49,395 bases of DNA from an uncultured Saprospiraceae bacterium (GCA_964458135.1 CAYWHT010000001.1:1-49395), one strand, 5' to 3'. Positions 16,261 through 43,249 are shown, counted from the first letter of the stretch. A program made the numbers and translations. The notes: generated by a model from the sequence alone, not told the origin.

Positions 16261-16270
16261 AATCCCCCTG

Positions 16271-20561: not shown

Positions 20562-22620
20562 AGCGCTAAAAAATCGCAGCTTTCGCTCGACCTTGCACTA
20601 TGTGGCAGGGGCGCACCGCGAATCGCGGCGAGTATTTGTAAATGTGGGTGTGCCGGACGAACCTGGTGCGATCGCTGAGGAGATGGAGCAGCAAGCCCGG
20701 AAAAGTAAGTATCCTTGCCAGCGTCCGTGTTACCACATTTCGATCAGCCCTCATGAAAGGGATGCCGATAGCTTGACCGATAAGCAGTGGAATAGGCTAG
20801 CTAAAGATTTTTTAGAGGATTCGGGGCTGGGCAATCGCCAAGCAGTTGGCTATTTACACGAAGACGAGGACTACCCAAAATCGGGAAATCTCAGACCCCA
20901 TCTACATCTCATTGCAAACCGAATCGACGACAGCGGCAAAGCCTACGACACGAGTTGGGACTTCTATCACTTCCAATCGGTGATGCGGGAATTGGAGGAA
21001 AAACACGGGTTGGTGCAACAAGCATCTAGTTGGGAGGTCGGGCGGAGATCGCGCAATAGTGTCAAGCAAGTACAGCGGTTGCAACGGGAAGAGCGCGAAT
21101 ACAATCGCGGCGATCGCACGAACTTAGGAGAGAAACAGATGCCACACAATGGCAGTAGCACTCGACAACAACAAGAGGCGCGATCGCAGCAGCAAGGGCA
21201 ATCAAAAGATATCGGAGAATTATTGCGCGAGACTCGCCAGCGCGATCGCGAGGAGCGACAGGAAAATCACCAGCAATTATCTGGAGCCGTCCAAGGGGGA
21301 CAGCGGCAGGGCAAAAAAATCGAATCCTCCACTGGCGAATTTGATGGCATGAGCGTTATCGGTGGTGGGATTCGCCTGGGGGCTTCAGCAACGGCGGTAG
21401 CACAAGGATTCAAGAAAAAGCTCGATCTCGCTAAAGAAGAAGCTGAGGGCGAACGTGCCGAGCAATTAATCGATCGTCTCTCTAAAGTGGGAGATCGTGC
21501 CGAGCAATTAGAAAATCGCCTCGGTTTTGGAACTGACAGGGAAAAACAGCAAACCTCCAACGAACCGGAAATTGAGGGGGGCAGCGATCCATCGAACATG
21601 GAATCGCTTGAGGATGAAGGGCTTGACGCACAGCGGGAGCAACAAGGTAACAACCCCCTCGAAAATGCCATCAATTTTGGGAACGCTCGACTAGATCGAT
21701 TAGCGGATGCAGCGGGACTCGACGATGAAGATGACAAGCAGCGCGGCAGCTTCGATCTCGATCCGAATGCTTCCACAGACGAGCAATTCGATCGCCTCTC
21801 CGAAGCAATCGATGCAATGGACGATCGGTTGGATGCTCTGGAGCAACGGGCAGAATATCTAGAGGAACTGGCAATCCATAGCTCCGATATGGAGGAAAAG
21901 GTTGCAATGGACGATCGGATCGAGCAGTCCGATTCCGGATGGCAGCCAGAGGAGCAATCCTACATCTTCGGCAAGGCAATCGCGCAGAGCCTCAACAATT
22001 ATGCCTCTGCTCGTAGCGAAGTTTACGCTACGCGAAAGGACGAGGATATTCCTACGCGCTCGCTCGGGACAATTTCACCAGATCCCGGTAGCAATCGCGT
22101 GTCGATCTCGGACGACGAGTACGGACTTAAATTTGAAGCGCAGCAAAACGAAGACGGTAACTGGCAAGTTACTACGAACGAGCTAAACGAGGATGAGAAA
22201 AGCTCGATCGCTAGTTTGCCGCAGACCAAAGAAGATTATCAGGTGCAAGCCTCTGGGAAGTCAGTCGTGTATGGGCTGTCCAACCTTGCACCAGAAGATA
22301 TGAAGCGCGATCGCGACAGCTACGTTCGCTGGAAAGGCGAGAACGATCGCTTTGACTATTCGTTTTCGATTGGTGGCGCGGACGAATCCAGTAAGCAGCA
22401 AATTATGGGATATGACAATCAGAGCGGAAGTGACGACCCCGTATTTGAGGCTTCAATTGACGAGAAAGGATTTGTCCGTACCGATCGATGCGATATCCCC
22501 TCTAACCAGCTCGATCGTTTAGTCGAACAGGGCAAACAACAAGGTCAGCAGGGGAAAGGACGTAAGCCGCAAAAGCAGCGACAGCGTTCCAAACAGCACT
22601 CCAAAAATATGGAGCTTTGA
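20548..22620 (+). CDS. Conjugative relaxase (MobA/VirD2-type HUH nuclease) with long C-terminal extension
   Basis: An N-terminal Tyr region (RSTLHYVAG) and the His triad YLHEDEDYPKSGNLRPHLHLIANRID (HxDx..HxH) are present. The ATG at 20548 is preferred over the TTG at 20536. Confidence 0.85.
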   Translation: MPIAKALKNRSFRSTLHYVAGAHRESRRVFVNVGVPDEPGAIAEEMEQQARKSKYPCQRPCYHISISPHERDADSLTDKQWNRLAKDFLEDSGLGNRQAVGYLHEDEDYPKSGNLRPHLHLIANRIDDSGKAYDTSWDFYHFQSVMRELEEKHGLVQQASSWEVGRRSRNSVKQVQRLQREEREYNRGDRTNLGEKQMPHNGSSTRQQQEARSQQQGQSKDIGELLRETRQRDREERQENHQQLSGAVQGGQRQGKKIESSTGEFDGMSVIGGGIRLGASATAVAQGFKKKLDLAKEEAEGERAEQLIDRLSKVGDRAEQLENRLGFGTDREKQQTSNEPEIEGGSDPSNMESLEDEGLDAQREQQGNNPLENAINFGNARLDRLADAAGLDDEDDKQRGSFDLDPNASTDEQFDRLSEAIDAMDDRLDALEQRAEYLEELAIHSSDMEEKVAMDDRIEQSDSGWQPEEQSYIFGKAIAQSLNNYASARSEVYATRKDEDIPTRSLGTISPDPGSNRVSISDDEYGLKFEAQQNEDGNWQVTTNELNEDEKSSIASLPQTKEDYQVQASGKSVVYGLSNLAPEDMKRDRDSYVRWKGENDRFDYSFSIGGADESSKQQIMGYDNQSGSDDPVFEASIDEKGFVRTDRCDIPSNQLDRLVEQGKQQGQQGKGRKPQKQRQRSKQHSKNMEL

Positions 22621-22639
22621 CGAACTACAAGGATAACTT

Positions 22640-23230
22640 ATGGGGATTTCTAGATACAGAAAAAATATTCAATTTGATTTTCTCTGGAACAACACCTACT
22701 TAAGTGGATTAGATTCGGCAACATTAATCGCTTTGGGTTTACTGCTGATTTACCTTACTGCTTTTCAGCCTGCGGTAGTTCTAGTAGCGTGTTTTAGCTG
22801 TGCAATTGTATCGGCTTTTTCTTTACTAAATCAGGGACTGAAAACCGCAACGGGTTATTCTATTCCCGTCAAAATTTGGCACTTAGCCACTGTTGTACTT
22901 GTACTTACAGCTATATTCGGACAAGCCACAACACCTGCTTTTGCTCAGTTCTTTAATAGTTTAGAGCAGGCAGTTCAAGATGTGGTTTCTAATGCTGATA
23001 CAGGTATTAGTTCGCAACTCGTAAGTACCATTTTTGCATTTTTTCGAGTACTAATTCTTCTCGCTTTTGTCATCGGCGTTGTCGTTGTATTTGCTCAGGC
23101 GACTAGAGGCAACGATTGGCAGCCAATTGCTAACTTGCTAGCTGTTGGCGTTGCGTTTGTGATTGGCGTTGAAATCATTAGCCAACTAATTCTTGGTGGC
23201 AGCGGACAACAAGGTGGTGGAAACCCTTAA
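22640..23230 (+). CDS. VirB2/TrbC-like pilin candidate
   Basis: A long leader ends at TTPAFA|QFF. It is followed by two hydrophobic helices separated by a short charged loop (FAFFRVLILLAFVIGVVVVFAQATRGNDWQPIANLLAVGVAFVIGVEIISQLILGG). The gene is the first of the T4SS cluster. Confidence 0.5.
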   Translation: MGISRYRKNIQFDFLWNNTYLSGLDSATLIALGLLLIYLTAFQPAVVLVACFSCAIVSAFSLLNQGLKTATGYSIPVKIWHLATVVLVLTAIFGQATTPAFAQFFNSLEQAVQDVVSNADTGISSQLVSTIFAFFRVLILLAFVIGVVVVFAQATRGNDWQPIANLLAVGVAFVIGVEIISQLILGGSGQQGGGNP

Positions 23231-23273
23231 TATTGATGGTGCCAATGATTTATGAGTTTTTGGAGCTTGACTT

Positions 23274-26200
23274 ATGGACGTTGATAAAGATCCGGTAAAA
23301 GTCAACCCAATCTTGGGGCAACGCGCGTCGATCGGACCAATTCCGGCTGACCAATTGATTCCCTGGGTGTTTATTGGCGTCTTCTCTTACTTCATTTTCT
23401 CAATGCTGCTTGGAGTGGGGATTTTGCCCTGGCTCGGTACGTGGATATGGATAGCAGCCTCGTGGTGGATACTCACGGGCAGCAAGACTTATGCCTTTAT
23501 TAAATCGTGGGTACAGCCACCGGGGGTCGATTGGATTAATGCCGAAACGTTATTCGTCCGCGCCACCGATGCCGGAACTTGGAGGCGTGCCAAACAAGAC
23601 AAACTACGCTACGTGAAGCAAACCTCAAGTGAAGACGGAAAGACGAGGAAATTCATGCCTTTTCAAAACTTCAGCCACATTCATAGTATCGCTGAAATTC
23701 AGCTTGGGGGATACAGTTTTGCGTGTTTAGTGCTGTACGACAAAGCAAATGATTCTTGGTCGGCTCAAATCCCTTTTAAATTTTCTGGCATTCACCCGCA
23801 GCTTTATCGGAATGAAGTGGAATCCGCTATTAGCGCACTGCATGAAGCTTGTAGCGAATTTAATGAAGGCGAATTTTTAACCTTCCAAACTTCGTGTAAG
23901 TCAATTACGCGCAATCGCAAGAAACAATTGCGAGAACTGGCTAAAACCTCTGATTCTAAGGCAATTGGCGTTCAGTTGCTCAATGAAGAACAGCGCGTAA
24001 AAGAGCTTGCTGCTAGTGGTGCGCGGCAAGTTTGGGAGCAGATAATTTGGGGAAGCTGGACAGCACAGAAAGACATTGAGGAGCGCACCGATTTAATCGG
24101 AAAGATCTTGCTATGGATTAAAAATAAGTACCAATCCTCAATTACAGGATTCATGGGAACGAAACAATCCTATTTCAATGATTTTTACGAGGATTTAGCG
24201 CGGCAAATCCACGAGCGCGGCTTTCTCAAGTGGCGAAATTTGCTCGAAACTAAGGGTGAATTGCTCTGTGAACCGATGAGCGCTCGGGAAATTTGGCAGC
24301 ATCTATGGTATCGATTCAACATCCAACCTGCTCCAACGCTGCCGCAAAACCGCTATATCCAAGTAATTGAGGAGCAAGGCGGACTGCAAACCAACGTACC
24401 GCAATCGGGGCAAAAAGATCTGATTACGCTGCTAGTACAGGGCGATCGCGGTAAAACTTCCTGCCCGAAACACCAGTCGCAGCGGGGTTTTATCTATTCG
24501 TGCAATAAGGTCGGGCGAGTGGTAACGATCGAGCAACCTCCCGAATTGTGGCGTAATGCCAGAGAGCAGTTGAAATGGATTTGGAATCGCCTCTCCACAA
24601 CCTACGTGCGCGATACGGACGCCGTCATACAGATCAGCTCTCGGGAAAAGTGGGCAATCCAAGATGAGCTTGAAAAAATGACCAAACAGTCTAAATACGA
24701 GGAGCGACGCGCGGTAGCCGAGGGGACTGGCAAGGGCGTCGCGGCATCCATGCAAGGGGAACACGCCGAAGATGCTCTCAGAAAGATGCTCGAAGGCAAA
24801 CAACCACTTTATTGCGCTCCCGTATTCGTGATTTGGCGAGATAGCGAGGAAGAAGCAAATGAGGCAGCGCGGCAATTTTGCCAAGCTTTTGGCAGCGCCA
24901 CCGCAACGGTGGAAGACGATATTGCGTGGCGAGTTTGGGTTGAGTCTTTGCCGATCAATAGTTTTCCTTTGCTAGAAAAATATTCTGCCTTCAGCGAGCG
25001 GAGGCTGACTCTCGATAGTGAAACCGTGCCGGGATTCCTTCCACTTACCCGCCCGCGCGATCTGGACAGCAGGGGTGTGGAGTTTTTAAACAGTCGAGGC
25101 GGACACCCAATTTACGTCAACTTGCTCGATCCGCAAACCGGACGCGCTCTAATTACTGGAAAAACTGGATCGGGAAAATCTGTATTGGGGTGGAGGTTTG
25201 TTCTGGATGCTTTGGCTCAAAATATCCCAGTAGTGGGGATCGATCTGAGCAGCGGTGGCGACTCGACCTTTAAAACTGCCGTGTTGAGCTTGGGAGAGGA
25301 AAAAGGCGCATACGTTGATATTCTGCGGGAATCTCTCAATATCCTCGAACCGCCCGATCTTCGTACTCTTGCGCCTGAAGTACAAGTGCAACGATTGAAG
25401 CGTTGGAAGGATGTCGTTCGCACCGTGGTTGCCACGATTGCAATGGCGCAAATCGAAGACCCCCAACTGCACTCGCGAGTGGATTCAATCTGTCTGCGTC
25501 TGCTGGAAGTCTTTTTTGCTGACGTGGATATTACCAATCGCTACAATAATGCCTTCGAGCAGGGCTGGAAATCTGAAGCCTGGGGCGAAATGCCAACTCT
25601 ACATGACCTGCTCAAATTTTGCTCGAAGGAGAAGTTGGGGCTAGAGAGCTATGAAGAAATCGACGCCAGGGCAATTAACCAAATCGTCAATCAGGTTGGG
25701 GCAAAGCTACAAGATCCGAATATCGGCGATGCGATCGGGCGTCCGAGTACGGTTTCGCCTTATCCACTAATTACGTTCTACGCGCTATCGGGGCTGTCCA
25801 ACGAGCAAAACGCTACCATCATGGCTCTTTCAGCGCAGATGGCAGCGCTGCGAAATGCCCTAGCGTCGAGTCAAAGCCTCTTCGTGGGCGACGAGCTTTC
25901 GGTGTTGTTGGACAAACCCGGCTTCGCCGATGTGGTGGGCGAGATGTTGGCGACCGGGCGAAAGGAAGGCATCTCCACTTTGATGCTGGCGCAGGATTTG
26001 GATGCGATCGTTAACTGCAAAGCCTCAGCTAAAATTCTCGCCAACCTCAGCACTCAAATTACCGGGAAAACTACCTATGCGGCAACGGCAGCCTATGCCA
26101 ATGCGCTGGGGTACGATCGCGAGCTAATTGCTCAAAATGCCAGCGAATCGTATAGAGGCAGCAAGCACGAACTTTATACGCGCTGGCGAGTGGAGCGGAA

Positions 26201-26465
26201 CAATCGCTTTTGGGATGCGCGATTCTATGCTGCGCCGATGATGCTGGCTAGCTTGGCAAACGGCGAGTCCGAGGTTGCCGCGCGCGATCGCGTTCTTGCA
26301 GGGTATCCCAGTACGGAAAAAGGTCGCTTGCGAGGGTTGCGCGATTTTACCGATCAATACGTGATGGCAATGCGAGGCAGTACTTCATTTTCGGAGGTGA
26401 TGCCTACTACTACAGGTTCGACGGTTCGAGAAGAACGCGAACGGCAAGTCGTCAATAATCGATAG
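23274..26465 (+). CDS. virB4: VirB4-family T4SS ATPase with N-terminal VirB3-like membrane segment
   Basis: N-terminal transmembrane helices are present (LIPWVFIGVFSYFIFSMLLGVGILPWLGTWIWIAASWWILTG). Walker A is ALITGKTGSGKSVLG and Walker B is SLFVGDELSVLLD. The protein is 1063 aa. Confidence 0.9.
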   Translation: MDVDKDPVKVNPILGQRASIGPIPADQLIPWVFIGVFSYFIFSMLLGVGILPWLGTWIWIAASWWILTGSKTYAFIKSWVQPPGVDWINAETLFVRATDAGTWRRAKQDKLRYVKQTSSEDGKTRKFMPFQNFSHIHSIAEIQLGGYSFACLVLYDKANDSWSAQIPFKFSGIHPQLYRNEVESAISALHEACSEFNEGEFLTFQTSCKSITRNRKKQLRELAKTSDSKAIGVQLLNEEQRVKELAASGARQVWEQIIWGSWTAQKDIEERTDLIGKILLWIKNKYQSSITGFMGTKQSYFNDFYEDLARQIHERGFLKWRNLLETKGELLCEPMSAREIWQHLWYRFNIQPAPTLPQNRYIQVIEEQGGLQTNVPQSGQKDLITLLVQGDRGKTSCPKHQSQRGFIYSCNKVGRVVTIEQPPELWRNAREQLKWIWNRLSTTYVRDTDAVIQISSREKWAIQDELEKMTKQSKYEERRAVAEGTGKGVAASMQGEHAEDALRKMLEGKQPLYCAPVFVIWRDSEEEANEAARQFCQAFGSATATVEDDIAWRVWVESLPINSFPLLEKYSAFSERRLTLDSETVPGFLPLTRPRDLDSRGVEFLNSRGGHPIYVNLLDPQTGRALITGKTGSGKSVLGWRFVLDALAQNIPVVGIDLSSGGDSTFKTAVLSLGEEKGAYVDILRESLNILEPPDLRTLAPEVQVQRLKRWKDVVRTVVATIAMAQIEDPQLHSRVDSICLRLLEVFFADVDITNRYNNAFEQGWKSEAWGEMPTLHDLLKFCSKEKLGLESYEEIDARAINQIVNQVGAKLQDPNIGDAIGRPSTVSPYPLITFYALSGLSNEQNATIMALSAQMAALRNALASSQSLFVGDELSVLLDKPGFADVVGEMLATGRKEGISTLMLAQDLDAIVNCKASAKILANLSTQITGKTTYAATAAYANALGYDRELIAQNASESYRGSKHELYTRWRVERNNRFWDARFYAAPMMLASLANGESEVAARDRVLAGYPSTEKGRLRGLRDFTDQYVMAMRGSTSFSEVMPTTTGSTVREERERQVVNNR

Positions 26466-26474
26466 GAGGTATTT

Positions 26475-27650
26475 ATGATGCTACGACGACTCATGGTGAC
26501 ATCTTCGGCTATTATCGCTGCGTTAAGCGCGATCGCCAATCCCGCGATCGCACAGGAAACAGAGAATTCTGCCGATGGCGGCAACGACTCTGAATCTATC
26601 GATACTAGCGGCAATACGGGGACAGTCGAGCAAGTTCAAGGCGACGTTACCGATACGGCTAGCGATATCGAAGAACAGGTGAGCGACGTTACCGGAGATA
26701 TCAATGAGGAAATTGATAATACTACAGAGGAATTAGGCGATGCCATTGGCGATGTTACTGATAGCAGCAGCGATGGTAATAGTGGTGGTGGGTTGTTCGA
26801 GGATAGTAGCGTTCTCAGTAATGTCCCCGATTCCGGGAACCTCGGCAATATTTCTGAGGGTATAAACGAAACCGTCGGCGACGTGCAAGAGTCGGTCGGT
26901 AACGTTCAAGAGTCGGTCGGTGGCGTTATCGAAAATGCTGAGAGTAGCGTCGAGGATTTGATTGCGTCGATCTCGGGACTCAATATTCTCGAACAGTTCG
27001 GACTCGCCGATCTCGGAGAAATTCTATCTTCCACTGATGAGATAGTTTCCGGTGGAAACTCCAGCTCTGGCAGCGAGGGCGATAGCTCCTCGGGAAACAA
27101 TACGGTAATTGGCAGCCTCGGCTTACCCAATCCTGGCAAAGTCGAGCACAAAATCGATAATGCCAGCACCAACCCAGCCAGCGAAATTTTGGCGACTAAG
27201 CAAGGCGGCGAAGGGTCGCCAGTTATCAAAGAAGATGCTGCCGACGAGTTTAAATCGGACTTAGCCTCTGAAGTAGCCCGCGCCTCTGCATTATCAGAGC
27301 AAGGGCAAGAAAAATTAGCTCAAAACGCTAAAGCTGCTCAAACAGCCACTCAAAAGTCGCTAAAGCTGGCGAAGAAGAGTGCAAATACTGACGTTTCGCA
27401 GAATATCATGCGAAATCTCAGCGCTCAACAAGCTATCCAGGGCAAGATGACGGCACTAGAAGTGGTTGACGCCCAGCTTAGGCAGCGCGACGATGCCTTG
27501 CGAAACTTGACCCTCTCCAGTGCATTAGACGAACTCCAACGCAATCGCGCCGCCGAACGACGCAAAGGAGCAAGTGCCTACAGTGGTGCATTAAATTCGG
27601 GCGCACAGGTGGTGGTTCCCGGCGTAACTGTTGAAGATGACGGAGGATAA
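26475..27650 (+). CDS. Secreted acidic repeat protein occupying the VirB5 position
   Basis: The signal peptide reads MMLRRLMVTSSAIIAALSAIANPAIAQE. Asp/Glu/Ser/Gly-rich repeats follow (VGDVQESVGNVQESVGGV), and the C-terminal half is helical. A TAGGAGGT box precedes the ATG. Confidence 0.6.
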   Translation: MMLRRLMVTSSAIIAALSAIANPAIAQETENSADGGNDSESIDTSGNTGTVEQVQGDVTDTASDIEEQVSDVTGDINEEIDNTTEELGDAIGDVTDSSSDGNSGGGLFEDSSVLSNVPDSGNLGNISEGINETVGDVQESVGNVQESVGGVIENAESSVEDLIASISGLNILEQFGLADLGEILSSTDEIVSGGNSSSGSEGDSSSGNNTVIGSLGLPNPGKVEHKIDNASTNPASEILATKQGGEGSPVIKEDAADEFKSDLASEVARASALSEQGQEKLAQNAKAAQTATQKSLKLAKKSANTDVSQNIMRNLSAQQAIQGKMTALEVVDAQLRQRDDALRNLTLSSALDELQRNRAAERRKGASAYSGALNSGAQVVVPGVTVEDDGG

Positions 27651-28799
27651 ATGCTACTCCTCAGATTTTTAGATATTCTCCCCCATCTTTTTGCCCAATC
27701 AGGCAGCGAAGCTGCTGCGAATATGGTGATAGACTCGCTGAATTTGCAGCAGCAGATTCGCGCATCCTGGGACGATATTTGGAAGTCCGCGCTAGATTGG
27801 CAGTCAGCGGATTCTCCGTACCTATTACTGGTTAAACTAAGTTCGACTCTTGCCTTCTTTATTTTGATTTACCTGTTTATCAAAAAGGGCGAGGAAATCA
27901 GCAAGAGCAAGTACCTAGGCTCGGTTATCGAGATGTTTATGATGCCCTTAGTTTACATAATTTTTGTTGGCACTAATGGCAAACTTCTAGCGCAGATTAT
28001 TCTTACATTGCGAGGAGTTGCAGAATCGGAAATTGAAAGACTTAACCAGATAAAAATTGGTGGGATTCAAATCTCAAACGCCACCTTACAGGTGCAGACA
28101 AATATTCTAGGGCAAGAGCGAATTCGGCAAGTTTATAGCGAGTGCCAGGGCGCAATTGGCGAAGATCTAACGAAATGTCTCCAAAGTAAGCAATCTGAAG
28201 CACAAGGAATTGTTAATGGTTTGGAGCAACAATTACCAGACAATGTTTCTCTGGAACCACTACAAAATTTTGCTGATACTATTGGCGGAATTACTGGTGT
28301 AAGTTCGGTAGCAGAAACTGCTGGAAATCTCGTTCAAGGTAATTTTATCGAAATTATCCAAAATCAGCTTTATCCAATTTTAAAAAATTTACTCTACGCA
28401 ACACAATGGGCTTTTATTAATATGGTAGAAGCGGCTCTAGTGCTAACCGCCGTTATTGCTCCTTTAGCTCTTGTGTTCTCGCTTCTACCCACTTCAGGAA
28501 AGCCAATTTGGGCTTGGGCTAGTGGCTTTATTTCGCTATATGGGTTAAAACTTTTCTATTCAATTATCGTGGGAATTATCGCTACAGTAATCGTGAATAC
28601 GGACGGTAGTCTCGCCGAACTTGGCTCAGAGTTTGGTTTCCTGATTTTCTTGTCCCTCCTCGCGCCATTTATCTCTACCGCCCTCGTAAGTTGGGGAGGC
28701 GTGTCGCTTTACCAGGGCATTCAGAGCCGAGCAACTGCCATCCTTGGTGCAGCTTTAGATGGAGTGGGTAGCATGGGCAAAATGATGATGGGGAAATAA
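27651..28799 (+). CDS. VirB6/TrbL-like polytopic membrane protein
   Basis: At least five hydrophobic helices are predicted. The position, between the VirB4/B5-position genes and the VirB8-like gene, supports the call. Confidence 0.6.
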   Translation: MLLLRFLDILPHLFAQSGSEAAANMVIDSLNLQQQIRASWDDIWKSALDWQSADSPYLLLVKLSSTLAFFILIYLFIKKGEEISKSKYLGSVIEMFMMPLVYIIFVGTNGKLLAQIILTLRGVAESEIERLNQIKIGGIQISNATLQVQTNILGQERIRQVYSECQGAIGEDLTKCLQSKQSEAQGIVNGLEQQLPDNVSLEPLQNFADTIGGITGVSSVAETAGNLVQGNFIEIIQNQLYPILKNLLYATQWAFINMVEAALVLTAVIAPLALVFSLLPTSGKPIWAWASGFISLYGLKLFYSIIVGIIATVIVNTDGSLAELGSEFGFLIFLSLLAPFISTALVSWGGVSLYQGIQSRATAILGAALDGVGSMGKMMMGK

Positions 28800-28800
28800 T

Positions 28801-29565
28801 ATGTTTTCATCTAAAAAGGATAACGATCCAAACAAAAACGGGTACCTAAACTCATCATCGTCTAATACCAAGGGCGATATGATTCAGGGCAACGAGAATA
28901 GAGTACTAATACTGCTTTTAATTTTGTCGGGCAGTTTGTTGATTAGCTTGCTTGCAATCGTGGTGCTTCTTTTTAATAATCGCGCTCTTGCAGAACGCGA
29001 AAACACCTACGTTCAAATGAACGATGGTTTTACTAAAGAAATCAGAGAATTTAATGTCAGCCATCGCGAAGCAAGCACGATTAAACAGACTGTAAGCACT
29101 TGGGTACAACTTACTTTTGAATGGGATAATCGAATTCCAGGATCGAGCGCTACTGATAAGGGATTTGAAATTAATGAAGAGACAATTCCCACGAAGTCGT
29201 ACCTGGCAAGTTACATTATGCAAGAAGGGTTTCGCCAACAGTTCTTGACACAGCTTGGGTCTGAAGTAGTTCCGCCTGATGTCTTTACGGGGCAGCGGCG
29301 CTCGACTGTAAGAATTTATGACATCTCCAATCCGCGCCAAGTGGGAGAGGGAACTTGGGAGATTGACGTTGTATCTTCTCGAATCGAAACTGTGGGCGGA
29401 CGCGAGGATCGAGAGGTTGAATTCAACCGCACTTTCACAGTTGAAGCCATCCCGCCAATCGAATCAGCATTAAAGGAGCAAGAGTCGAGCGCTTGGCGCA
29501 AACAGGTTTACGACCTGACCACAAACGGATTGATAATTACGCAGATTGAACCACTCGACGTATAG
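28801..29565 (+). CDS. VirB8-like bitopic protein
   Basis: It has a short cytoplasmic N-terminus and one transmembrane helix (VLILLLILSGSLLISLLAIVVLLF). A periplasmic domain of about 190 aa has alternating beta pattern (TWEIDVVSSRIETVGGREDREVEFNRTFTVEAI). The call is based on topology and position. Confidence 0.55.
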   Translation: MFSSKKDNDPNKNGYLNSSSSNTKGDMIQGNENRVLILLLILSGSLLISLLAIVVLLFNNRALAERENTYVQMNDGFTKEIREFNVSHREASTIKQTVSTWVQLTFEWDNRIPGSSATDKGFEINEETIPTKSYLASYIMQEGFRQQFLTQLGSEVVPPDVFTGQRRSTVRIYDISNPRQVGEGTWEIDVVSSRIETVGGREDREVEFNRTFTVEAIPPIESALKEQESSAWRKQVYDLTTNGLIITQIEPLDV

Positions 29566-29578
29566 GGAGATATTTTTA

Positions 29579-32487: not shown

Positions 32488-32489
32488 TA

Positions 32490-32699: not shown

Positions 32700-32708
32700 A
32701 ATTTCTTG

Positions 32709-33089: not shown

Positions 33090-33094
33090 TACTG

Positions 33095-36000: not shown

Positions 36001-39000
36001 GTTTACTGCCAACTTCTCGGATGTCATGAAGCGCTACTTATATCGCTCTCGCGAGGTACAGGAGAAGAATTTCCGAGGAGAGCGCGAACGGCGGATGCTG
36101 ACCGACGAGGAACTGGGAACTGAAGGGGTCGAGGCATTCGAGCGTGCCGAAAAACTCATTGACGATACGGATCTAGATTTCCCGGTTAGCCCGATCGATC
36201 GTGTCCGGCAACGAATTGAGGATGCGGGCTATAGTTTCGAGGAAATTACGGGTCGCCAGCACGCTCTCGATTACGACGAAGATGGCAACGCCACCTATCG
36301 CAAGCGCGGCTCGAAAGAGACTTCGCAGGCTGCAAAAATCCAGACAACCGACAACTTCAACAATGGCGATACGGATGCCCTATTGCTCAATCGCTCTGGG
36401 GCAACCGGAATTTCGCTGCACAGCGGCGAGAAATTTCAAGATCGCCGCCGCCGCCACATGATTGTCGGGCAAGCCGAGCGCGACGTGAACGCTTTTATAC
36501 AAACATTGGGGCGCGTCCACCGCACTGGGCAAGTCGAGCCGCCGAAAATTTCGATCGTGATGAGCGATGTCCCGGACGAGAAGCGTCCCGCCGCCATGCT
36601 CGAAAAGAAAATGGCAAGCCTCAACGCCAACACTACGGCAAGCAGAAGCTCGGGGTTCGATACCAGCGAAATTCCAGACTTTTTTAATGAATACGGATCT
36701 GCCGTGGTCGAAAACATGATGGAGGACTACCCGGATGTTAACGCCAAGCTGGATTATCCAGTGGGGTTGTCAGGGAGTGGCAACCGCGAACAAGCCAATG
36801 ACGAGGATGCGATCCGCAAAGTTACGGGTCGATTGCCGTTGTTGAGCGTAGATGAGCAGGGGCAATTTTATGAAGAGCTTGAAGAAGAATACAAGGCAAT
36901 GTCGGAGCGGCAGAAAGCCCTCGGCAACAATATCCTAGAGGCAGACTTTCGGGATCTCGACGTTCAACCTATTGCTCAAGCTAACATTATCGAGTCCGAT
37001 CCGAATTCAAGTTCGGCATTTGCGAATGGGGTTCGTGCGGAAATTGCCAATGTAAATGCACCATCTAAGCCAAAGACGCAGCTTGAAGTGACCAATGAAG
37101 TCCGACGAGGGCTAGGCTTGGATTCAATTAGCAACCTCGAAGACTACGAACCCGACAAGGTGCGCGGCTCGGCAGAATTCGAGCGAGATGAAACGCTTGA
37201 GAAAGTCGATCGCGCTACAGACGCTTACCGAAATCGCCAGCACCAAAAAATTCGAGATCGCTCCTCGCTCGAACCTAAAGATCCCAACGCAGATAATGCC
37301 GAGGAGGAGCGGCAGCGGCTCGCTGAAAAATTTCAGAGCCGCCTGGATGCTGAAGACAAAAAAATTGACAAACAGCGCAGCCATATCAAGGAAGAAGTTG
37401 AACAATTTCCGCGCGGACAAACTGTGCGATTGGCAGCAAAAGGGCGCGGCGAAGAAGGTCGAACTTTTTATGGAGCAATTACTGATATTCGCAAGCGCGG
37501 ACAGAGCCTTGACGACTCGATTACCGGAGCAGACAATAGCAATCAGTTGGGCGATAATCCTCTAGCGGCGAGTAAGTGGGAAATGCTCGTTTCGATCGCC
37601 GATAGTGCCAGAGAAATGGCGATTCCAGTAAGCAAGCTAAATACGGGGCGAATCGGCTCGATTACTATGAACCCTGCTGAGGAGTCAGCGGCAGGAGAAA
37701 ATATCATGCAGATGTTCGACGATCGCCAGTCTGAAAGCAGCCGAGAGGTTCGGCAGGTGTTGCGCGGTAATATGCTGAAAGCCGCCCATCAGTACGGCAA
37801 TCAAGGTGACATGATCAACGCCACGACTCGCGATGGTGGAGTCGAGCCGATTATGTTGATGGATCGCAATTTTGACCTGAATAAAGAACAGGAAAAATCG
37901 AATGTGCTATTGCCGCACGATCGCAATATTAATCAATTTTTTGAGCTAACCGAAGACAAAGGAAAGGTTCAAACCGAAGATGGACGATTAACTCTTACAA
38001 AGCACGGAGAAAAATACCAACTCGAAACCAGCCGTGGGGCAAGCGATTATTATCTCAATCGAGATCTAACGGATGCTATTGGGGATGATTTTTATTCTAA
38101 AGGCAGTGACCGCATGGTGGCAAATTTTAATTGGGACAGGTTCGATAATGTCCTGGGCGAAATTAAGTATGTGATGGGGCATAGTAAAACTATGCAAGCT
38201 GCTTCCCATAAAGATACTGCCAGGGAGTTGGTTGGGGAACAGACTTTAAAATTTGATTGGCACGAATCGATCGACAAACAGGCTGTTAAAAGTTTAGGAT
38301 TTCCAGAACATCCGAAACTTGAAGATTTTAAGGGCAAGGAAGTACGGAATAAGCTGAACGCCTTGTTGCCGGATAAATTGTATGAAGAAGGAAAAACAGA
38401 GGATAACATGGCACTTAAGCAAAACGACAATGGCGAAACCGACAAAATCAATTTAGAAAATTCAAACTCAAGCAAAGAGCAGCAAGACGAACAAGATAAA
38501 CAGCAATTATCGGATAAATTCTCATCTTTTTCACGCGATATCGAAACGGAAATGTGGAATAACGAGGATGGAGATTCTATTGGTATAAAACTCCAGAGCG
38601 AGGGAGTTACAAGCGATGATTTCGACAGCTATATTTTCGAGAAAACGCTTGAATACTTTGACGATAGCTATACTGCAGAACCAGACCCAGACACGGATCG
38701 AGATGCAGTTCAAGCAGTTGAAGAGGCTAGTAAAAAAGCGGGTGTTAGCAATCAACTAGATGCGGTGATTAGTAGAGTTAGAGGAAATTATACTAAGCAG
38801 CAACAGGAGCTTGACAGTAGTATAAGCTTGGAGCAGGCTAAACGATCTTCTTCTCAAATCACTCAGGACATAGAAGAACGACGGCAAGAAGCTGAGAAAG
38901 AAGAGCAGCAGAAACTTGAAGACCAAGGTAGGTTGTATGAAGGCAAGAAACCTTCAGAGCGTGAGGATGCTGATTTTTTAAAAGAACACCTGCACGGTGC

Positions 39001-40114
39001 ATTTAAGGAAAAGTATGAATTAGATGACGAAGCAGCGACTGAACGAGTTAATGATTTATTTGGAACTTGGGAAAATGAAGGGTATAATGCAATCTACGAT
39101 AAGTATTTAGAGGATTTATCAGAAGATTGGAATAAACAGGTAAAGGATCTAGTAGCCGAAGCATCGCATGAAGATTCTCAAGAAGCTCACCGAACTGTTT
39201 ATAGTGAAATTGAAAAACGCGAAATCCAAAATTCTCATGAGGAGATGGGCGAGGCGGCAAAGCGAGTGAGCGGAATGCTTGATGAATTCAGCGGCGATCG
39301 CACTCAGATAAAAGGCGAACACGACTATCGCGATACCATCACTTTTCTGCGCTCAGATGCTCGCGATCGATTGAGCGAGGAGGAACGACAAACAGTCAAC
39401 GAAAGCTTCGATCGTGCTGAGGAGGTGATGCAATCGTACCAAAAATTAGGAAAAAGTATCGATTCTATGGAAGAGTTGCTGGACTCATACGAAGCCGATG
39501 CACCCGAGCGAGTAATTACCGAGGCGATCGAAGACGAAGATGAAGAACTCGATGCCATGCTTGTCTCGGCGGAGGAGGAAGAATCGCAAGTTCCCAGCGT
39601 CGATACCTTCCGCGATTGGTATCAGTCGGCGCGAAAGCTGGCGCGATCGGACGAAGAACTCGGCAAAATCGAGCAGTATGGAAAAGCAGCGAAAGCTGGC
39701 GAACTCGATAGCTTTGAAGAATCGGAAGAAATGGAAGAAACGATCGCGACGGCACAGCAACAGAGCCGAATCGGGGAAAACGTGGTATCAAATGCCCGGA
39801 GCTTTATCAGTGCGGCGAAAGATGCTGGGATTGTCAAAGAGAAAAATGGCGAGACTTCCCTAGAAGGCAAGCACTACCAGGTCACCCAGTGCAACGATCG
39901 AGTTGAGGTATCGGGCAAAGAGTCTGGGGCGAAAGTGATTAGCGATCTCGATCGCGAGGGGAACGAAAATATCCGAGAAGCGCACGACCTCTCGGACAAA
40001 GACAGCAAGCGCTGGGATAGTTTGGGAAATCGCAGTGCTGAAGATTTACAAACTCGCAAGCAGAAGCAACGCCAATCCAAGCAGCAGAAACAATCTGCTG
40101 AAGTCGAACGATAG
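33095..40114 (+). CDS. Giant (2339 aa) N6-adenine-type DNA methyltransferase fused to an SNF2/strawberry-notch-like helicase, with a long acidic coiled-coil tail
   Basis: The methyltransferase motif I-like box is DVYEPTAGHGALL and motif IV is VVIANPPFG (NPPF at 33659-33670). Helicase motif I is GDQTGVGKGRQ (about 34931-34963), the DEAH box is VMVLDEAHEAGG, and motif VI is QTLGRVHRTGQ. The last 600 aa or so are Glu/Asp/Lys/Gln-rich. Confidence 0.9.
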   Translation: MPERDRTNNLANHFRDRFLAGDRFQSITQARKSVSDYLGQPIQPGSRQAKQLDESVEQGLVRAAKAIIQAGEDSGDSPAATYDRLVDLYQRQPRLGTRSSTSIERQQYSTPVPIAYLASRLAGVDRDCDVYEPTAGHGALLAEADPQRSTVNELDDDRAADLHRQGYEVTQHDAVNWRPGRQADVVIANPPFGCRQGQNGRAEQFEIGGDLTKIRTIHLDHAIAWKSLEAMKDDGRATLILGSEHGTQQSRSDKYNQQQNRGFFYNLYKNYNVTNHFTIDGGLYGRQGAGFPIDVIQIDGRGTSQRELPAADVPKLYTSYDELKETLNYGVSRERTASSDRDARLSIFPESQRLEADGNGRGCAPDAPVLADPPAEQPNSNSRLHGLSESGSRQGRVADLPLQLAARDSSDRSIRLYRDQSEENRRRFDDPRTDNQRSGVGTDSDREFVVAGNVAARDSDGAARASATNPPGRGGEGASHRGDSGRDEPRRMVTRNSGRVKKHREPSPFTEFEESSMPEDDNRNNPEQQQVRYQPQSKHSSLDTLIPRNLQGSARESLDSLEERVGGDIDEFVRDCVGFESEEDSKDALAGEQVDGTALAIDRIENDQGALIGDQTGVGKGRQLASILKYAKETDRTPIFVTQKPSLYADMIRDLEDVGEAGFNPFVTDRDTKVPLPDGREINTKPGQKKQEIDDILKSGELPDEYDGIFTTYSQMQTVRGKEPPRRELLRQFAPNSVMVLDEAHEAGGSPDRQSLPGQASNRAEFARELVDDAEGVAFSSATAIKRPDVLDLYGRRTGMTEALGGVKDLQNVLEGGIPLQQASSAMLTRDGNYTRRERSYEGVDFGIEQVDVSRESTDGMAEIMGSILQFDRAKQDAVISIDEELKKEAKSVSEDNAIGKSGADSTNFTALMHNVMDQAQVARKSDQMADEAIASLERDEKPVIAVSNTMGSFIEQVAERDDLHRGDEFTANFSDVMKRYLYRSREVQEKNFRGERERRMLTDEELGTEGVEAFERAEKLIDDTDLDFPVSPIDRVRQRIEDAGYSFEEITGRQHALDYDEDGNATYRKRGSKETSQAAKIQTTDNFNNGDTDALLLNRSGATGISLHSGEKFQDRRRRHMIVGQAERDVNAFIQTLGRVHRTGQVEPPKISIVMSDVPDEKRPAAMLEKKMASLNANTTASRSSGFDTSEIPDFFNEYGSAVVENMMEDYPDVNAKLDYPVGLSGSGNREQANDEDAIRKVTGRLPLLSVDEQGQFYEELEEEYKAMSERQKALGNNILEADFRDLDVQPIAQANIIESDPNSSSAFANGVRAEIANVNAPSKPKTQLEVTNEVRRGLGLDSISNLEDYEPDKVRGSAEFERDETLEKVDRATDAYRNRQHQKIRDRSSLEPKDPNADNAEEERQRLAEKFQSRLDAEDKKIDKQRSHIKEEVEQFPRGQTVRLAAKGRGEEGRTFYGAITDIRKRGQSLDDSITGADNSNQLGDNPLAASKWEMLVSIADSAREMAIPVSKLNTGRIGSITMNPAEESAAGENIMQMFDDRQSESSREVRQVLRGNMLKAAHQYGNQGDMINATTRDGGVEPIMLMDRNFDLNKEQEKSNVLLPHDRNINQFFELTEDKGKVQTEDGRLTLTKHGEKYQLETSRGASDYYLNRDLTDAIGDDFYSKGSDRMVANFNWDRFDNVLGEIKYVMGHSKTMQAASHKDTARELVGEQTLKFDWHESIDKQAVKSLGFPEHPKLEDFKGKEVRNKLNALLPDKLYEEGKTEDNMALKQNDNGETDKINLENSNSSKEQQDEQDKQQLSDKFSSFSRDIETEMWNNEDGDSIGIKLQSEGVTSDDFDSYIFEKTLEYFDDSYTAEPDPDTDRDAVQAVEEASKKAGVSNQLDAVISRVRGNYTKQQQELDSSISLEQAKRSSSQITQDIEERRQEAEKEEQQKLEDQGRLYEGKKPSEREDADFLKEHLHGAFKEKYELDDEAATERVNDLFGTWENEGYNAIYDKYLEDLSEDWNKQVKDLVAEASHEDSQEAHRTVYSEIEKREIQNSHEEMGEAAKRVSGMLDEFSGDRTQIKGEHDYRDTITFLRSDARDRLSEEERQTVNESFDRAEEVMQSYQKLGKSIDSMEELLDSYEADAPERVITEAIEDEDEELDAMLVSAEEEESQVPSVDTFRDWYQSARKLARSDEELGKIEQYGKAAKAGELDSFEESEEMEETIATAQQQSRIGENVVSNARSFISAAKDAGIVKEKNGETSLEGKHYQVTQCNDRVEVSGKESGAKVISDLDREGNENIREAHDLSDKDSKRWDSLGNRSAEDLQTRKQKQRQSKQQKQSAEVER

Positions 40115-40123
40115 GAGTAATAC

Positions 40124-41959
40124 ATGAGCCGCCGCATCGAACCCAATCGGGCAATCCTACTCGCCAGAACCCAACAAAATGAGGAAATTCCTTACTGGGC
40201 AGAACCGATCGCCGATGCCTGGAGTACCATTTCCGGAATCCTATTCTCCGGACAGGGGATGGCGCTAATCGGAATCTTGCTTGTTCTCGGGGCAATGCGA
40301 GTATTCTCGGGCGGACAGACCCAAGGACTCGCCGCCGGAAAATGGGCAGGTCGCACGGAGCGCTTAAATGCCTGGAAGCGCACGAAAAAGAAGCTGAGGG
40401 GTGAGGACGTTGACGACGTGGCTTTGTGGTGCGGCGGCTCGGTTAAACAGGGCTTTTTCGGCAAGTTATTAACCTTTGTTACGGGTGACTTACCTACCAC
40501 GGTGGTTCCCGACGCCAATCGCTCGACAATCGTATCGGGGAAGCCGGGAAGTGGGAAAACCTTCTCAGCGATCGATCCAATGCTTAAATCGGCGATCGAG
40601 CAAGGGTTGCCCATCGTCCTCTACGACTATAAAGCAGACGAGCAGGGAGCTGGCGGACAGACTGATTTTGCAGCTACTTTAGCCGCGCGTCATGGATACA
40701 AATTGAATATTTTCGCACCAGGGCGGGACTACACCTGTACAATTAATCCTCTCGATTTTATGGAATCTCCGAGCGACGATATCACAGCCAAAACTTTGGC
40801 TGAGGTATTTCAGAAAAATATGAAAGGCGATAATTCAGGTGGTGACGCATTCTTCGGGGCTGCCGGACAGCAGTTAATCCAAGCCTTACTTCAGTTTGCT
40901 AAATCAACAAGGTATCCCGATATTCCAATGGCATTCGCGACGGTGCGGTTGCAGCAATTACCCGAGCGATTAATTCATGCTGAGAAAGAAGGCAATCTCC
41001 CCGTCTCTGTTAAAATTGCCTTCTCGCAGCTCATGTCTACAACGGGCGCTGAAAAAACTGTCTCGGGAATTGTCAGCACCGCTCAAGATATATTAACTCG
41101 ATTTATTTCGCCAAGGATTTTACCTGCAATTACTAAGGATACTAATATTTCAATCCAAATTAGTGGGAAAGAAATAATTGTATTTCAAAGTGATATTTTT
41201 CGTCAAGAAGTTGTAAATCCTCTGCTAGCAGCAATTATTAACGTTGTCATCGATCGTAATTTTAGTTATCAGCGCGAAACACCACTGATTTTTAGCGCTG
41301 ATGAATTCCCTACAATTTATTTACCACAAGCACCCAGATGGGTAAACGAACACCGCTCGAAAGGATTTTGCGGTATCTTTGGATTTCAGTCATTCCCGCA
41401 GATTCGAGATACTTACGGCAAAGAACAATCCGCCGTGATGCTGGCAGGTACAGGATCGCATTTCTGGTTTAACCCTGGCGACCAAAATACTGCCAAAGAC
41501 CAATCTTCATTTTTGGGAGAGGAAGAAATTATAATCGAAAATAAGTCGAAAACCCACCAGCGTGGGGAGGGGCGTGGTAGTATCAGTAAAAGTCAGCAAA
41601 CCCAAACTAAACCGCTGATAACCGCTTACGAGATTAATCAATTTAAGGTAGGGGAGTGCATTTATCTAAACCCCGGTTTCTCTGATGGCGACCGCGAGAG
41701 TATTCCCCAGCATTTAAAGCGCATTGAGATTCCAGAGGAAGATATTTCGCTACATAAAGAATGTGAAAAAATGTGGCTTAATACCGTTCGAGATCGATTA
41801 ATTCAACGAGAGCAGGGACGCCGACCAAATATGAACTTTGAGCAGCAATTGCAAGCTCGGTTCGAGGAGGCAGAACGGTTACTGCCTTTGCCTCCAGATG
41901 AAGAAGATGAAGAACAAAAAGATGATGTAAATGTTACCAATGTAATTCCAGATTTATAA
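40124..41959 (+). CDS. virD4: VirD4/TraG-family type IV coupling protein
   Basis: An N-terminal transmembrane helix is present (GMALIGILLVLGAM). Walker A is IVSGKPGSGKTFSAIDP and Walker B is PLIFSADEFPTIY. A TAGGAG box precedes the ATG. Confidence 0.9.
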   Translation: MSRRIEPNRAILLARTQQNEEIPYWAEPIADAWSTISGILFSGQGMALIGILLVLGAMRVFSGGQTQGLAAGKWAGRTERLNAWKRTKKKLRGEDVDDVALWCGGSVKQGFFGKLLTFVTGDLPTTVVPDANRSTIVSGKPGSGKTFSAIDPMLKSAIEQGLPIVLYDYKADEQGAGGQTDFAATLAARHGYKLNIFAPGRDYTCTINPLDFMESPSDDITAKTLAEVFQKNMKGDNSGGDAFFGAAGQQLIQALLQFAKSTRYPDIPMAFATVRLQQLPERLIHAEKEGNLPVSVKIAFSQLMSTTGAEKTVSGIVSTAQDILTRFISPRILPAITKDTNISIQISGKEIIVFQSDIFRQEVVNPLLAAIINVVIDRNFSYQRETPLIFSADEFPTIYLPQAPRWVNEHRSKGFCGIFGFQSFPQIRDTYGKEQSAVMLAGTGSHFWFNPGDQNTAKDQSSFLGEEEIIIENKSKTHQRGEGRGSISKSQQTQTKPLITAYEINQFKVGECIYLNPGFSDGDRESIPQHLKRIEIPEEDISLHKECEKMWLNTVRDRLIQREQGRRPNMNFEQQLQARFEEAERLLPLPPDEEDEEQKDDVNVTNVIPDL

Positions 41960-41992
41960 CTTTAAAACTAGGAATAAATAAGGAGATCTGCA

Positions 41993-42385
41993 ATGACTGA
42001 TACAACTGGACGAGATAGATTAATTGAAATGGCACAAGAACACAAGAAGCTCAAGGCAAAAGCAACTTTTTTAGATAATGGCGTGCGCCTTGGGCGCGTC
42101 GCCTACACTCAATGGGGAGGACTCCGCGCTCGATTCGGAATTGTTGCAGAGATTCGCGGTGGTTGGTTCGACCTTCGCCATAATGTGATTCTCGATCCTA
42201 TTGGGGTAGACGAATTCGACGACAATGACGACAGGAAAATTCACGAATATGGGTCAAATTTGCGAAACCTCTCTCGCAAGTGCTACGAGCGACGGAAAGC
42301 CGAATTGCAAGAACAGCTAGACCTGCTCGAACGAGCCTGGGAGATTCAGCAGCAACTTGAAGAATTGGATGGAGGCAGCAGCTAA
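41993..42385 (+). CDS. Hypothetical protein (130 aa)
   Basis: An AAGGAG box lies 7 nt upstream of the ATG. The C-terminus is coiled-coil. No motif was recognised. Confidence 0.55.
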   Translation: MTDTTGRDRLIEMAQEHKKLKAKATFLDNGVRLGRVAYTQWGGLRARFGIVAEIRGGWFDLRHNVILDPIGVDEFDDNDDRKIHEYGSNLRNLSRKCYERRKAELQEQLDLLERAWEIQQQLEELDGGSS

Positions 42386-42388
42386 ATA

Positions 42389-43249
42389 ATGGGATCGAGT
42401 GACTATGCCGAACGCGAAGATAGTAAGATTGCACGCCACGAACAGCGCTATGCCGAAGCTGGAGTAACCGGGGCGATCGCATCGCGCGCCGCCGAATTAA
42501 AAGCACAGCAGCAGGATGGTGGGGAAGAACTCGACGAAGTTGCCGTACAGATTGTCGATTTTGCCGATCGCAATCAAGCACAACACGAGGAATTACAAAC
42601 TCTGAGTCAGTACGGGGCAGATCTCGAACAGCATGGATTTGAGGCGATCGCTGACAACTATAGCAATCGGATTCCCGATCTCAAAGATAACCTGGGGCAG
42701 CATCGCGCTAGAGCTGCCAACGGCGAAGAGGTTGATTGGGTTGCCGACCGACAACGCGATTTAATGGGCGACCTACAGCGGCAAGGTTCCCTGGAACGAC
42801 AAGTCGAACAAGGCAATCGCGACTTGGGCGAGGTTATTAGCAACTCTGACACTGACGACACGGGAACAGGTACAGAGGAACAGGAAGAATCACCTTTCCA
42901 AAAACAAGTCGATAATTTCGCCATCATAGAAAATGCTAGGCGATTGCACCAGGCGGCTCAGAATACGCCATTGGTGAAGAAGGCTGGCAATAATATTTCC
43001 GTCCTGGAGGGCGATCGGTACTCGGTGGTACAGTCCGACGAGACTACAATCGTGCAAGGTCGCGATCGCGGCGGACGAGCGATTGCTAATGGCGACCATC
43101 TGCTTGATGCGGATGGATTCACGAAAGATGACGAGCGCTGTTGGGAGGAGCTAGGGCAGATTACAGCCGAGCAGCTACAGCAAAGCAATCGACAAATTCA
43201 AGAACGAGAAATTCTGCGGAGGGAGAATTCTGATGAGATTGAGATGTAA
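42389..43249 (+). CDS. Hypothetical protein (286 aa) carrying the shared C-terminal module
   Basis: The C-terminal 110 aa read ENARRLHQAAQN...VLEGDRYSVVQSDETTIV...DGFTKDDERCWEELGQITAEQLQQSNRQIQEREILRRE. They align by eye with the C-termini of the giant protein and the relaxase. Confidence 0.6.
   Translation: MGSSDYAEREDSKIARHEQRYAEAGVTGAIASRAAELKAQQQDGGEELDEVAVQIVDFADRNQAQHEELQTLSQYGADLEQHGFEAIADNYSNRIPDLKDNLGQHRARAANGEEVDWVADRQRDLMGDLQRQGSLERQVEQGNRDLGEVISNSDTDDTGTGTEEQEESPFQKQVDNFAIIENARRLHQAAQNTPLVKKAGNNISVLEGDRYSVVQSDETTIVQGRDRGGRAIANGDHLLDADGFTKDDERCWEELGQITAEQLQQSNRQIQEREILRRENSDEIEM

Follow-up and report, generated by a model that had tools for sequence, protein, structure and literature searches.

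A C-terminal domain family with glutamine-rich tails in the conjugation locus of a putative cyanobacterial plasmid: a candidate signal for type IV secretion

Introduction

Beyond a few proteobacterial models, little is understood of how conjugative plasmids select those of their proteins that are sent along with the DNA. The closest described systems include XVIPCD, a C-terminal domain of ~120 aa with a Gln-rich tail that binds the all-alpha domain of VirD4 and whose last 6 or 20 residues cannot be lost without abolishing translocation, and BID, which is a four-helix bundle (PMC8740702). F-type type IV secretion systems (T4SSs) transfer plasmid-encoded proteins (PMC8406263), and polyvalent proteins that combine a methylase with a helicase are predicted to travel with DNA and counter restriction (PMC5512222). 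For the giant methylase-helicases of this kind, delivery is predicted only, and no signal is known. Here we analyze a 49,395-nucleotide stretch of DNA from an uncultured Saprospiraceae bacterium (GCA_964458135.1, CAYWHT010000001.1:1-49395; the whole stretch is referred to below as the window), focusing on the C-termini of four proteins encoded in its conjugation locus, namely, a relaxase, a giant 2339-aa protein and two small proteins of 127 and 286 aa (p127 and p286).

The original prediction, made from the sequence of the window, held that five segments in these four proteins, two of them in the relaxase, are copies of one module, that the terminal copies are followed by tails rich in Gln, Lys and Arg (Q/K/R), and that module and tail together mark proteins for transfer by the T4SS, following the same logic as BID and its positively charged tail, with no homology claimed. 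We found that the module is a genuine, previously undescribed domain family of ~85 residues that is restricted to the extreme C-terminus of otherwise diverse proteins. In the following, we describe this family, its tail and its possible connection to the relaxase, and weigh a role in type IV secretion against other explanations.

Results

A domain family at the extreme C-terminus

All five segments translate as written in the original prediction, at the positions given there. In BLASTP comparisons against a small database, the C-terminus of the giant protein aligned with p286 (E = 7e-11, 29% identity over 112 aa) and with p127 (E = 8e-6), and p286 aligned with p127 (E = 1e-6); judging from these sequence comparisons, the C-termini of the giant protein and p286 and the p127 protein are homologous beyond doubt. 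The proposed module was thus borne out by BLASTP and profile searches for these three proteins but not for the two relaxase segments, for which BLASTP, HMMER and direct profile comparison gave no significant similarity.

A profile built from the three segments matched 33 cluster representatives at E<=1e-3 among 1.84 billion proteins, five of them at E<=1e-10. One representative, the FlgD/SpoIID/NlpC protein P0024, was rejected as a spurious, internal and partial match, leaving 32 credible members, and in all 32 the module match ends no more than 17 residues from the C-terminus, in full agreement with the terminal position that had been proposed. The module-bearing proteins are 90 to 2652 aa long and display at least four unrelated N-terminal architectures. 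Three are Strawberry-notch (Sbno)-type giant methylase-helicases and five are DUF6908 proteins (at least one of them, P0021, aligns by phmmer with the C-terminal part of the giant protein); other cargo groups are p286-like proteins with helical repeats, P0012-like proteins and several proteins without a Pfam match. Cargo-less members of ~100-146 aa also occur, for example, p127, P0008, P0018, P0026 and P0030, and P0010 carries two modules in tandem. No model in Pfam or NCBIfam matches the module, nor was a description of it found in a paper library searched for XVIPCD, cyanobacterial conjugative plasmids, polyvalent proteins, DUF6908, CyRepA1 and protein transfer by the F plasmid.

A search for homologous proteins with the module profile returned only P0001, a near-identical p127. 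The three-sequence profile found nothing among IMG/VR viral contigs or JGI metagenomes, and a subfamily alignment then recovered L098-L100 from the JGI set. Module matches in L007, L010, L039 and L093 had E-values of 0.016 to 6e-4 before inclusion in the profile; their later, low E-values are circular, and these matches are therefore counted as suggestive only. Residues 1611-1648 of the giant protein (37925-38038, + strand; NINQFFELTEDKGKVQTEDGRLTLTKHGEKYQLETSRG) resemble the first third of the module, with a score of 0.3 bits that is not significant.

Predicted structure of the module

The structure of the giant protein's module was predicted with AlphaFold2 from the 32-sequence alignment at a pLDDT of 89.4. 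The model is mainly beta, with a helix (positions 2-19), a six-strand meander (23-72), a second helix (76-86) and a long tail helix (90-112) of lower confidence. Positions kept across the family include N-A-x-x-F in the first helix, E-G-x-x-Y-x-V, N-x-E-T-G-G and G-L-T-x-x-D-x-x-x-W-x-x-L-G-Q. Foldseek searches of the model against the PDB and BFVD gave no match at E<=1e-3, and profile searches against the PDB were empty; given this lack of sequence and structure matches, we discarded the idea that the module is homologous to BID, to XVIPCD or to another domain of solved structure, and assign it to neither of these two families. With a median pI of 4.75, the folded part is acidic, which argues against DNA binding, and this role was likewise rejected.

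The tail and its terminal motif

The folded part is followed by a tail of ~25 residues (mostly 19-30) that is nearly constant in length and rich in Gln (21% at positions -30 to -5, compared to 6% in the background). The commonest ending is ...[D/E]-L-E-L, and 23 of the 32 members end in hydrophobic-E-[LMVRA] with an optional G/T, compared to 62 of 1250 background genes, drawn from the fetched loci (Fisher 6.5e-22). Within the window, the relaxase, the giant protein, p127 and p286 rank as the top four of 44 genes by Q+K+R content of the last 30 residues (0.60, 0.50, 0.40 and 0.33, respectively), as had been anticipated, and are the only four that end in hydrophobic-Glu-X. The tails of the window relaxase and giant protein are basic, but positive charge does not extend to the family, in which the median net charge is ~-1 to +1. 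The properties conserved in the tail are its Gln content, its length and the ...E-L end, and positive charge is not among them. Local alignments of the tail DNA were no better than codon shuffles, indicating that the tails are not recent copies, and recent copying at the DNA level was rejected as an explanation.

A similar tail was found on another relaxase. In L094, a module-bearing giant adjoins a relaxase of the MobA_MobL family (PF03389), unrelated to the PF03432 relaxase of the window; this L094 relaxase ends ...READLER, ...SKRRHPQSREADLER. Relaxases of two unrelated families on module-bearing elements possess the same type of tail, and this connection is independent of any homology between the module and the relaxase units described below.

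In L017 (Cyanobacteria bacterium FACHB-502; 12724-16934), three consecutive genes located after the coupling protein and SSB encode proteins ending ...AAEPEL, ...SGGIEL and ...KGAEL. None of the three has an HMM-detectable module, and the last contains a module-like stretch, ...SLQPEDFARLRALPEPQ....

The relaxase C-terminus and a bridging family

The relaxase consists of a nuclease domain (residues 29-159), a low-complexity middle and a conserved C-terminal region of ~220 aa. For the latter, AlphaFold (pLDDT 74) predicted a pair of consecutive units, both built of a beta-meander with a helix after it, ahead of a disordered tail. Unit 1 comprises a long helix, four strands and a short helix carrying L-N-E-D-E-K-x-x-I-x-x-L-P-Q (model elements H2-28, strands 44-79 and H83-90), and unit 2 comprises five strands and a helix (strands 126-183 and H187-205). 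The model is compatible with two module-like units, without being proof of them. Polo-box domains were among the non-significant top Foldseek matches of both models, no more than a hint of a beta-meander-plus-helix unit. The relaxase segments matched the module neither in BLASTP nor with the three-sequence HMM, and direct profile-profile comparison of unit 1 with unit 2 yielded P=0.12.

The C-terminal ~220 aa define a separate conserved family, with homologues of 670-760 aa encoded on MPF_T plasmids of Nostocales and Gloeocapsa (L009-L013). These homologues (for example, L009 19239-21365 and L010 18612-20897) occupy the relaxase slot upstream of a p196-like gene and VirB4, and have only the C-terminal ~220 aa in common with the window relaxase; tblastn found no match between their N-termini and the relaxase nuclease domain at that position. 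Their tails are Q/K/R-rich and end ...SEMQV, ...PEMQV or ...EIEM. P0036, a JGI fragment with 81% identity to the C-terminus of the relaxase, has a longer tail as the result of a tandem duplication, KQRQRSKQRSKQQKQRQRSKQRS, and retains ...KNMEL at its end.

Weak, repeated matches of the unit-1 HMM led to the detection of another family, denoted here the bridging family, which forms the C-terminal ~118 aa of 270-300-aa proteins that end ...PELGD or ...PDLGD. It is found in Nostocales, encoded ~4-5 kb downstream of the coupling-protein gene in 14 of 80 cyanobacterial T4SS loci. Its profile gave colinear alignments to the module over 100 columns (P=1.1e-3), to unit 1 over 92 columns (P=5.8e-4) and to unit 2 over 96 columns (P=4.5e-3), and these scores were reached by 0/60, 0/60 and 1/60 column-shuffled controls, respectively. 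Judging from these profile comparisons, the relaxase units are plausible, but not established, remote homologues of the module.

Conjugation operon and plasmid backbone

The + strand of the window from 20.2 to 43.2 kb is a divergent conjugation operon (Table 1), with the relaxase, a VirB4-like ATPase, VirB9/VirB10-like proteins and a VirD4-like coupling protein all in one locus and the mating-pair-formation genes in the same order as in L010, L015, L017 and L018. Because all relatives found are cyanobacterial, we take the window to be a conjugative plasmid of cyanobacterial origin. A near-identical copy lies on L001, a Logan contig of 29.5 kb, and megablast of window positions 32-44 kb against PLSDB gave no match. 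A CyRepA1 replication protein encoded after p286 on the minus strand (NCBIfam 4.6e-100) adds to the plasmid context.

The giant protein is a probable N6-adenine methylase fused to a Strawberry-notch-type helicase, with the module at its extreme C-terminus. Its N6_Mtase match (E=4.4e-4) falls just below the cutoff, the best among the matching family members being 6.5e-6, and homologues of the giant were found on 738 plasmids.

Table 1. Features of the window, with positions counted from its first nucleotide
Feature	Position	Strand	Support or remark
TopA	8972-10930	-	backbone gene
190-aa gene, then 217-aa gene	between TopA and M23 peptidase	-	backbone
M23 peptidase	12195-14681	-	backbone gene
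AAA ATPase	14545-16356	-	backbone gene
ParA-like	16929-17960	-	backbone gene
p392	backbone block 8972-19693	-	backbone gene
NikA-like ribbon-helix-helix relaxosome accessory protein, 112 aa	20223-20561	+	Pfam NikA-like 3.2e-8, RHH_1 1.4e-5
Relaxase, MobA/VirD2-type, 694 aa	20536-22620	+	Pfam PF03432 2.5e-24
Relaxase unit 1, residues 471-572 (covers the internal copy of the original prediction, 21991-22242)	21946-22251	+	AlphaFold, hhalign
Relaxase unit 2, folded part, residues 590-666 (C-terminal copy of the original prediction)	22303-22533	+	AlphaFold, hhalign
Relaxase tail, KQQGQQGKGRKPQKQRQRSKQHSKNMEL, 28 aa, Q/K/R-rich, ends ...SKNMEL	22534-22617	+	highest Q+K+R in window
Mating-pair-formation genes	22640-32487	+	weak Pfam matches: TrbI 1.3e-6, CagX 2.9e-4, TraG-D_C/KaiC-type ATPase
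p196, p391, p382, p254	within 22640-32487	+	mating-pair-formation gene block
VirB4-like ATPase, 1063 aa	23274-26465	+	size, position, weak ATPase matches only
TrbI/VirB10-like protein	29546-31609	+	Pfam TrbI 1.3e-6
CagX/VirB9-like protein	31606-32487	+	Pfam CagX 2.9e-4
69-aa protein, small family alongside giant methylase-helicases	32490-32699	+	phmmer 2.4e-7 to L098 homologue
p127, essentially free-standing module	32706-33089	+	HMM 4.5e-30, residues 21-127; no Pfam/NCBIfam family
Module + tail of p127	32766-33086 (tail 33015-33086)	+	HMM 4.5e-30; ends ...KEPEL
Giant 2339-aa protein	33095-40114	+	Pfam AAA_34 1.8e-18, Helicase_C_4 1.6e-27, N6_Mtase 4.4e-4
Module + tail of giant, residues 2227-2339	39773-40111 (tail 40034-40111)	+	HMM 6.2e-31; tail RKQKQRQSKQQKQSAEVER
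Type IV coupling protein, VirD4/TrwB-like, 611 aa	40124-41959	+	TrwB_AAD_bind 2.6e-23, TraG-D_C 6.7e-23, T4SS-DNA_transf 2.5e-16
p130	41993-42385	+	no family match; between coupling protein and p286
p286, N-terminal helical repeat region + module	42389-43249	+	HMM 1.3e-30, residues 177-286
Module + tail of p286	42917-43246 (tail 43163-43246)	+	HMM 1.3e-30; ends ...DEIEM

Two mating-pair-formation proteins have a composition unusual for T4SS components: the N-terminal half of the VirB10-like protein is a very long Gln/Pro/Glu-rich region of low complexity, and p391 (26475-27650, + strand) contains an acidic repeat region rich in Ser, Gly and Asp. The clade of the coupling protein has an acidic C-terminus, ...AERLLPLPPDEEDEE..., that is kept in L014-L019, with the motif ...AERLLP(L/M)PPDEED..., ...AERLLPLPPDEED... 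(41876-41956 in the window, + strand). This C-terminus recalls the acidic C-terminal extension of F TraD and might, as a matter of speculation, be a contact site for substrates or the relaxosome.

Genomic contexts of the module genes

In the window and L001, the module genes flank the coupling protein within the T4SS operon. Three module proteins are encoded per element in the window and in L098-L100 (318 aa, 434 aa and the giant), and two in L002. The JGI contigs L098-L100 (46-82 kb) contain a divergent relaxase, homologues of p392, the ParA-like protein, the AAA ATPase and the M23 peptidase, a ~440-bp gap and a homologue of the 190-aa gene product (p190), followed by the 318-aa and 434-aa module proteins with two ORFs of ~227 and ~133 residues, measured stop-to-stop, in between and, at the end, a gene of the 69-aa family and the module-bearing giant. 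The L098 backbone corresponds to the minus-strand set of the window (8972-19693) in the same order, except for TopA. In place of TopA, the 190-aa gene is followed there by the module genes and the giant, so that the giant cassette has changed its position in the backbone of the plasmid.

Other arrangements include a 237-aa module protein, a small gene and the giant in L002, and TopA, SSB, a module protein, a small gene, a methylase and a giant fragment in L096. In L003, the module gene adjoins an M23 peptidase, a type that is also present in the T4SS cluster of L006. Homologues of p286 adjoin giants in L002, L096, L097 and L098. The 69-aa protein of the window (…VNGIQVIRIV…LLTIHLDDNPQPEY…), which has no Pfam match, is encoded one gene upstream of the giant, with p127 between the two. 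Genes of its family lie directly upstream of the giant in L098 (12696-12929) and L002 (4464-4688), and just upstream of a methylase and/or giant fragments in L096 (4467-4697) and L097 (2467-2733).

Discussion

A candidate signal for type IV secretion

The observations at hand are a domain family with a strict C-terminal position, several unrelated cargoes, several copies per plasmid, a conjugative neighborhood and relaxases that carry the tail motif. The best-supported reading, to which we give even chances, is that module and tail form a bipartite C-terminal recognition and translocation signal for the plasmid's T4SS, a circumstantial case drawn from sequence comparison and from analogy with known substrates. 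The signal would be composed of an acidic folded domain of ~85 aa, a Gln-rich tail of ~25 aa predicted to be helical, and a terminal [D/E]-hydrophobic-Glu-Leu with a free carboxyl end. Contact with the coupling protein, transfer and roles in the recipient are inferred, as is homology of the relaxase units to the module. The docking site of the folded domain would be the coupling protein, reached directly or via the relaxosome, and the tail and terminal motif would engage the channel and be needed for entry. In this way, p127, p286 and the methylase-helicase could be delivered to the recipient together with the relaxase-DNA complex, and the methylase-helicase might then protect or process the incoming DNA.

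A number of findings weigh against such a signal, for which the support is comparative throughout. The relaxase segments scored -16 against the 32-sequence module HMM, hhalign of the module profile with the relaxase sequence gave P=0.38, and the direct profile-profile comparisons of the module with unit 1 (P=0.019) and unit 2 (P=0.063) were not significant. None of the 33 family matches is a relaxase, and the six closest relatives of the coupling protein (L014-L019, 53-61% identity), in syntenic T4SSs, have no detectable module within 10 kb. Homologues of the giant on Chroococcidiopsis and Picosynechococcus plasmids are devoid of the module, and in L098 the module genes lie far from any coupling protein in the stretch seen. 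The module-free coupling-protein relatives and the distance in L098 imply that the link of the module to the giant cassette is at least as close as its link to the coupling protein. Moreover, cargo-less modules such as p127, P0008, P0018, P0026 and P0030 are odd for a pure address label; a protein of 2339 aa would be a very large T4SS substrate, the unfolding and passage of which have to be assumed; and the tail, across the family, lacks the generally basic character of classical VirB/D4 signals.

The main rival explanation, which we consider unlikely, is that the module is a docking domain for homo- or hetero-oligomerization that assembles an establishment or anti-restriction cassette inside the cell, comprising a P0012-like protein, a p286-like protein, a small protein of ~75 aa and the giant methylase-helicase, with the Gln-rich helical tails pairing and export not required. 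The proximity of module genes to the giant, seen independently in five sets of sequences (window/L001, L002, L096, L097 and L098-100), the presence of two to three module copies per element and the lack of a module near the closest coupling-protein relatives all fit such an assembly, as does a tail predicted to be a long helix rather than disordered, and the cargo-less copies could cap or regulate it. Oligomerization would, however, leave unexplained the strict confinement to the extreme C-terminus with a free-end ...E-L motif, the similar tails on two unrelated relaxases, and the same kind of ending in the module-less L017 proteins that follow the coupling protein. Improbable in our view is a third possibility, that the module is an effector or targeting domain whose site of action is the recipient or host, where it might, for instance, bind a conserved host factor, so that position and tail are incidental and the resemblance of the relaxase is compositional. 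Nucleic-acid-binding proteins commonly have tails rich in Gln, Lys and Arg, the motif ending is present in about 5% of background genes, and the tail DNA is no more alike than expected by chance; the free-standing modules p127, P0008 and P0030 and the failure of the relaxase segments in standard significance tests would also be accounted for. Incidental features are nevertheless difficult to reconcile with a terminal position in 32/32 members and a constant tail length, with the strong enrichment of the motif (6.5e-22), with links of the bridging family that exceed shuffled controls, or with the ending retained after the tail duplication in P0036.

A broader version of the secretion-signal proposal, put forward tentatively and with some doubt, is that a structurally new C-terminal tag serves as a common ticket to the coupling protein in a lineage of cyanobacterial conjugative plasmids. 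The tag would occur in diverged form in the relaxase, as a tandem pair, in the Nostocales proteins encoded downstream of the coupling protein and in establishment proteins; the methylase-helicase would be injected with the DNA, and cargo-less copies such as p127 would regulate or gate access. If the secretion signal is real, such a portable tag would allow candidate co-transferred proteins to be listed from sequence alone, would provide a handle on protein transfer and anti-restriction in cyanobacterial conjugation, where natural conjugation is barely characterized, and could become a tool for protein delivery into cyanobacteria. If the oligomerization explanation holds, the module is still a new domain family without a Pfam or PDB counterpart.

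Comparison with known systems

The original prediction invoked the logic of BID with no homology to it, and this comparison stands: a folded domain followed by a tail parallels both BID and XVIPCD, and the fold differs (PMC8740702). The likeness to XVIPCD, which we take as analogy only, lies in a domain of ~110-120 aa that occupies the very end of otherwise unrelated proteins whose genes accompany a VirB/D4-type T4SS, and in a folded N-terminal part that precedes a Gln-rich tail, the last residues of which matter for translocation in XVIPCD (PMC8740702). The two differ in fold, with two helices and three strands in XVIPCD as opposed to a predicted helix, six strands, a helix and a tail helix in the module, and in the extreme end, which is hydrophobic and positive there and acidic-hydrophobic, [D/E]-hydrophobic-E-L(G), in 23/32 module proteins. 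They also differ in cargo, that is, antibacterial toxins with immunity partners as opposed to DNA-processing and plasmid-establishment proteins on a conjugative plasmid in a cyanobacterium. Finally, VirD4 binding is known for XVIPCD, whereas the module is known from sequence and a structural model.

The arrangement of BID and tail in Bartonella Bep effectors and related relaxases is similarly bipartite, is possibly likewise common to the relaxase and co-transferred proteins, and includes tandem copies, seen here in P0010 and the relaxase units; the module, however, is mainly beta, its family tail is not net positive, and its sharing with the relaxase is only marginally supported. The Arg-rich signal of Agrobacterium VirB/D4 substrates (VirF, VirE2, VirE3 and VirD5) is also a hydrophilic C-terminal tail with important last residues. 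The tails of the window relaxase and giant protein are strongly basic, whereas across the module family net charge is ~0 and Gln dominates, and a conserved folded domain precedes the tail. TSA and TSB of the F/R1 TraI relaxase are folded domains through which the coupling protein recognizes the relaxase, as cited in PMC8406263. They are internal, confined to the relaxase and without a tail motif, and no similarity to them was detected.

With polyvalent proteins, such as DarB of phage P1 and the transferred ArdC and TraC1, the window has in common a giant methylase joined to a SNF2/Sbno-type helicase on a mobile element. DarB is packaged and injected; for the polyvalent proteins of plasmids, no delivery signal has been defined, whereas the module and tail provide a candidate signal that the giant protein has in common with small partner proteins. 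By analogy, the closest functional likeness is to XVIPCD, followed by BID, and the module is a member of neither, as its fold and motifs do not fit. Among the known kinds of signal, the proposed tag would be a structurally unrelated newcomer.

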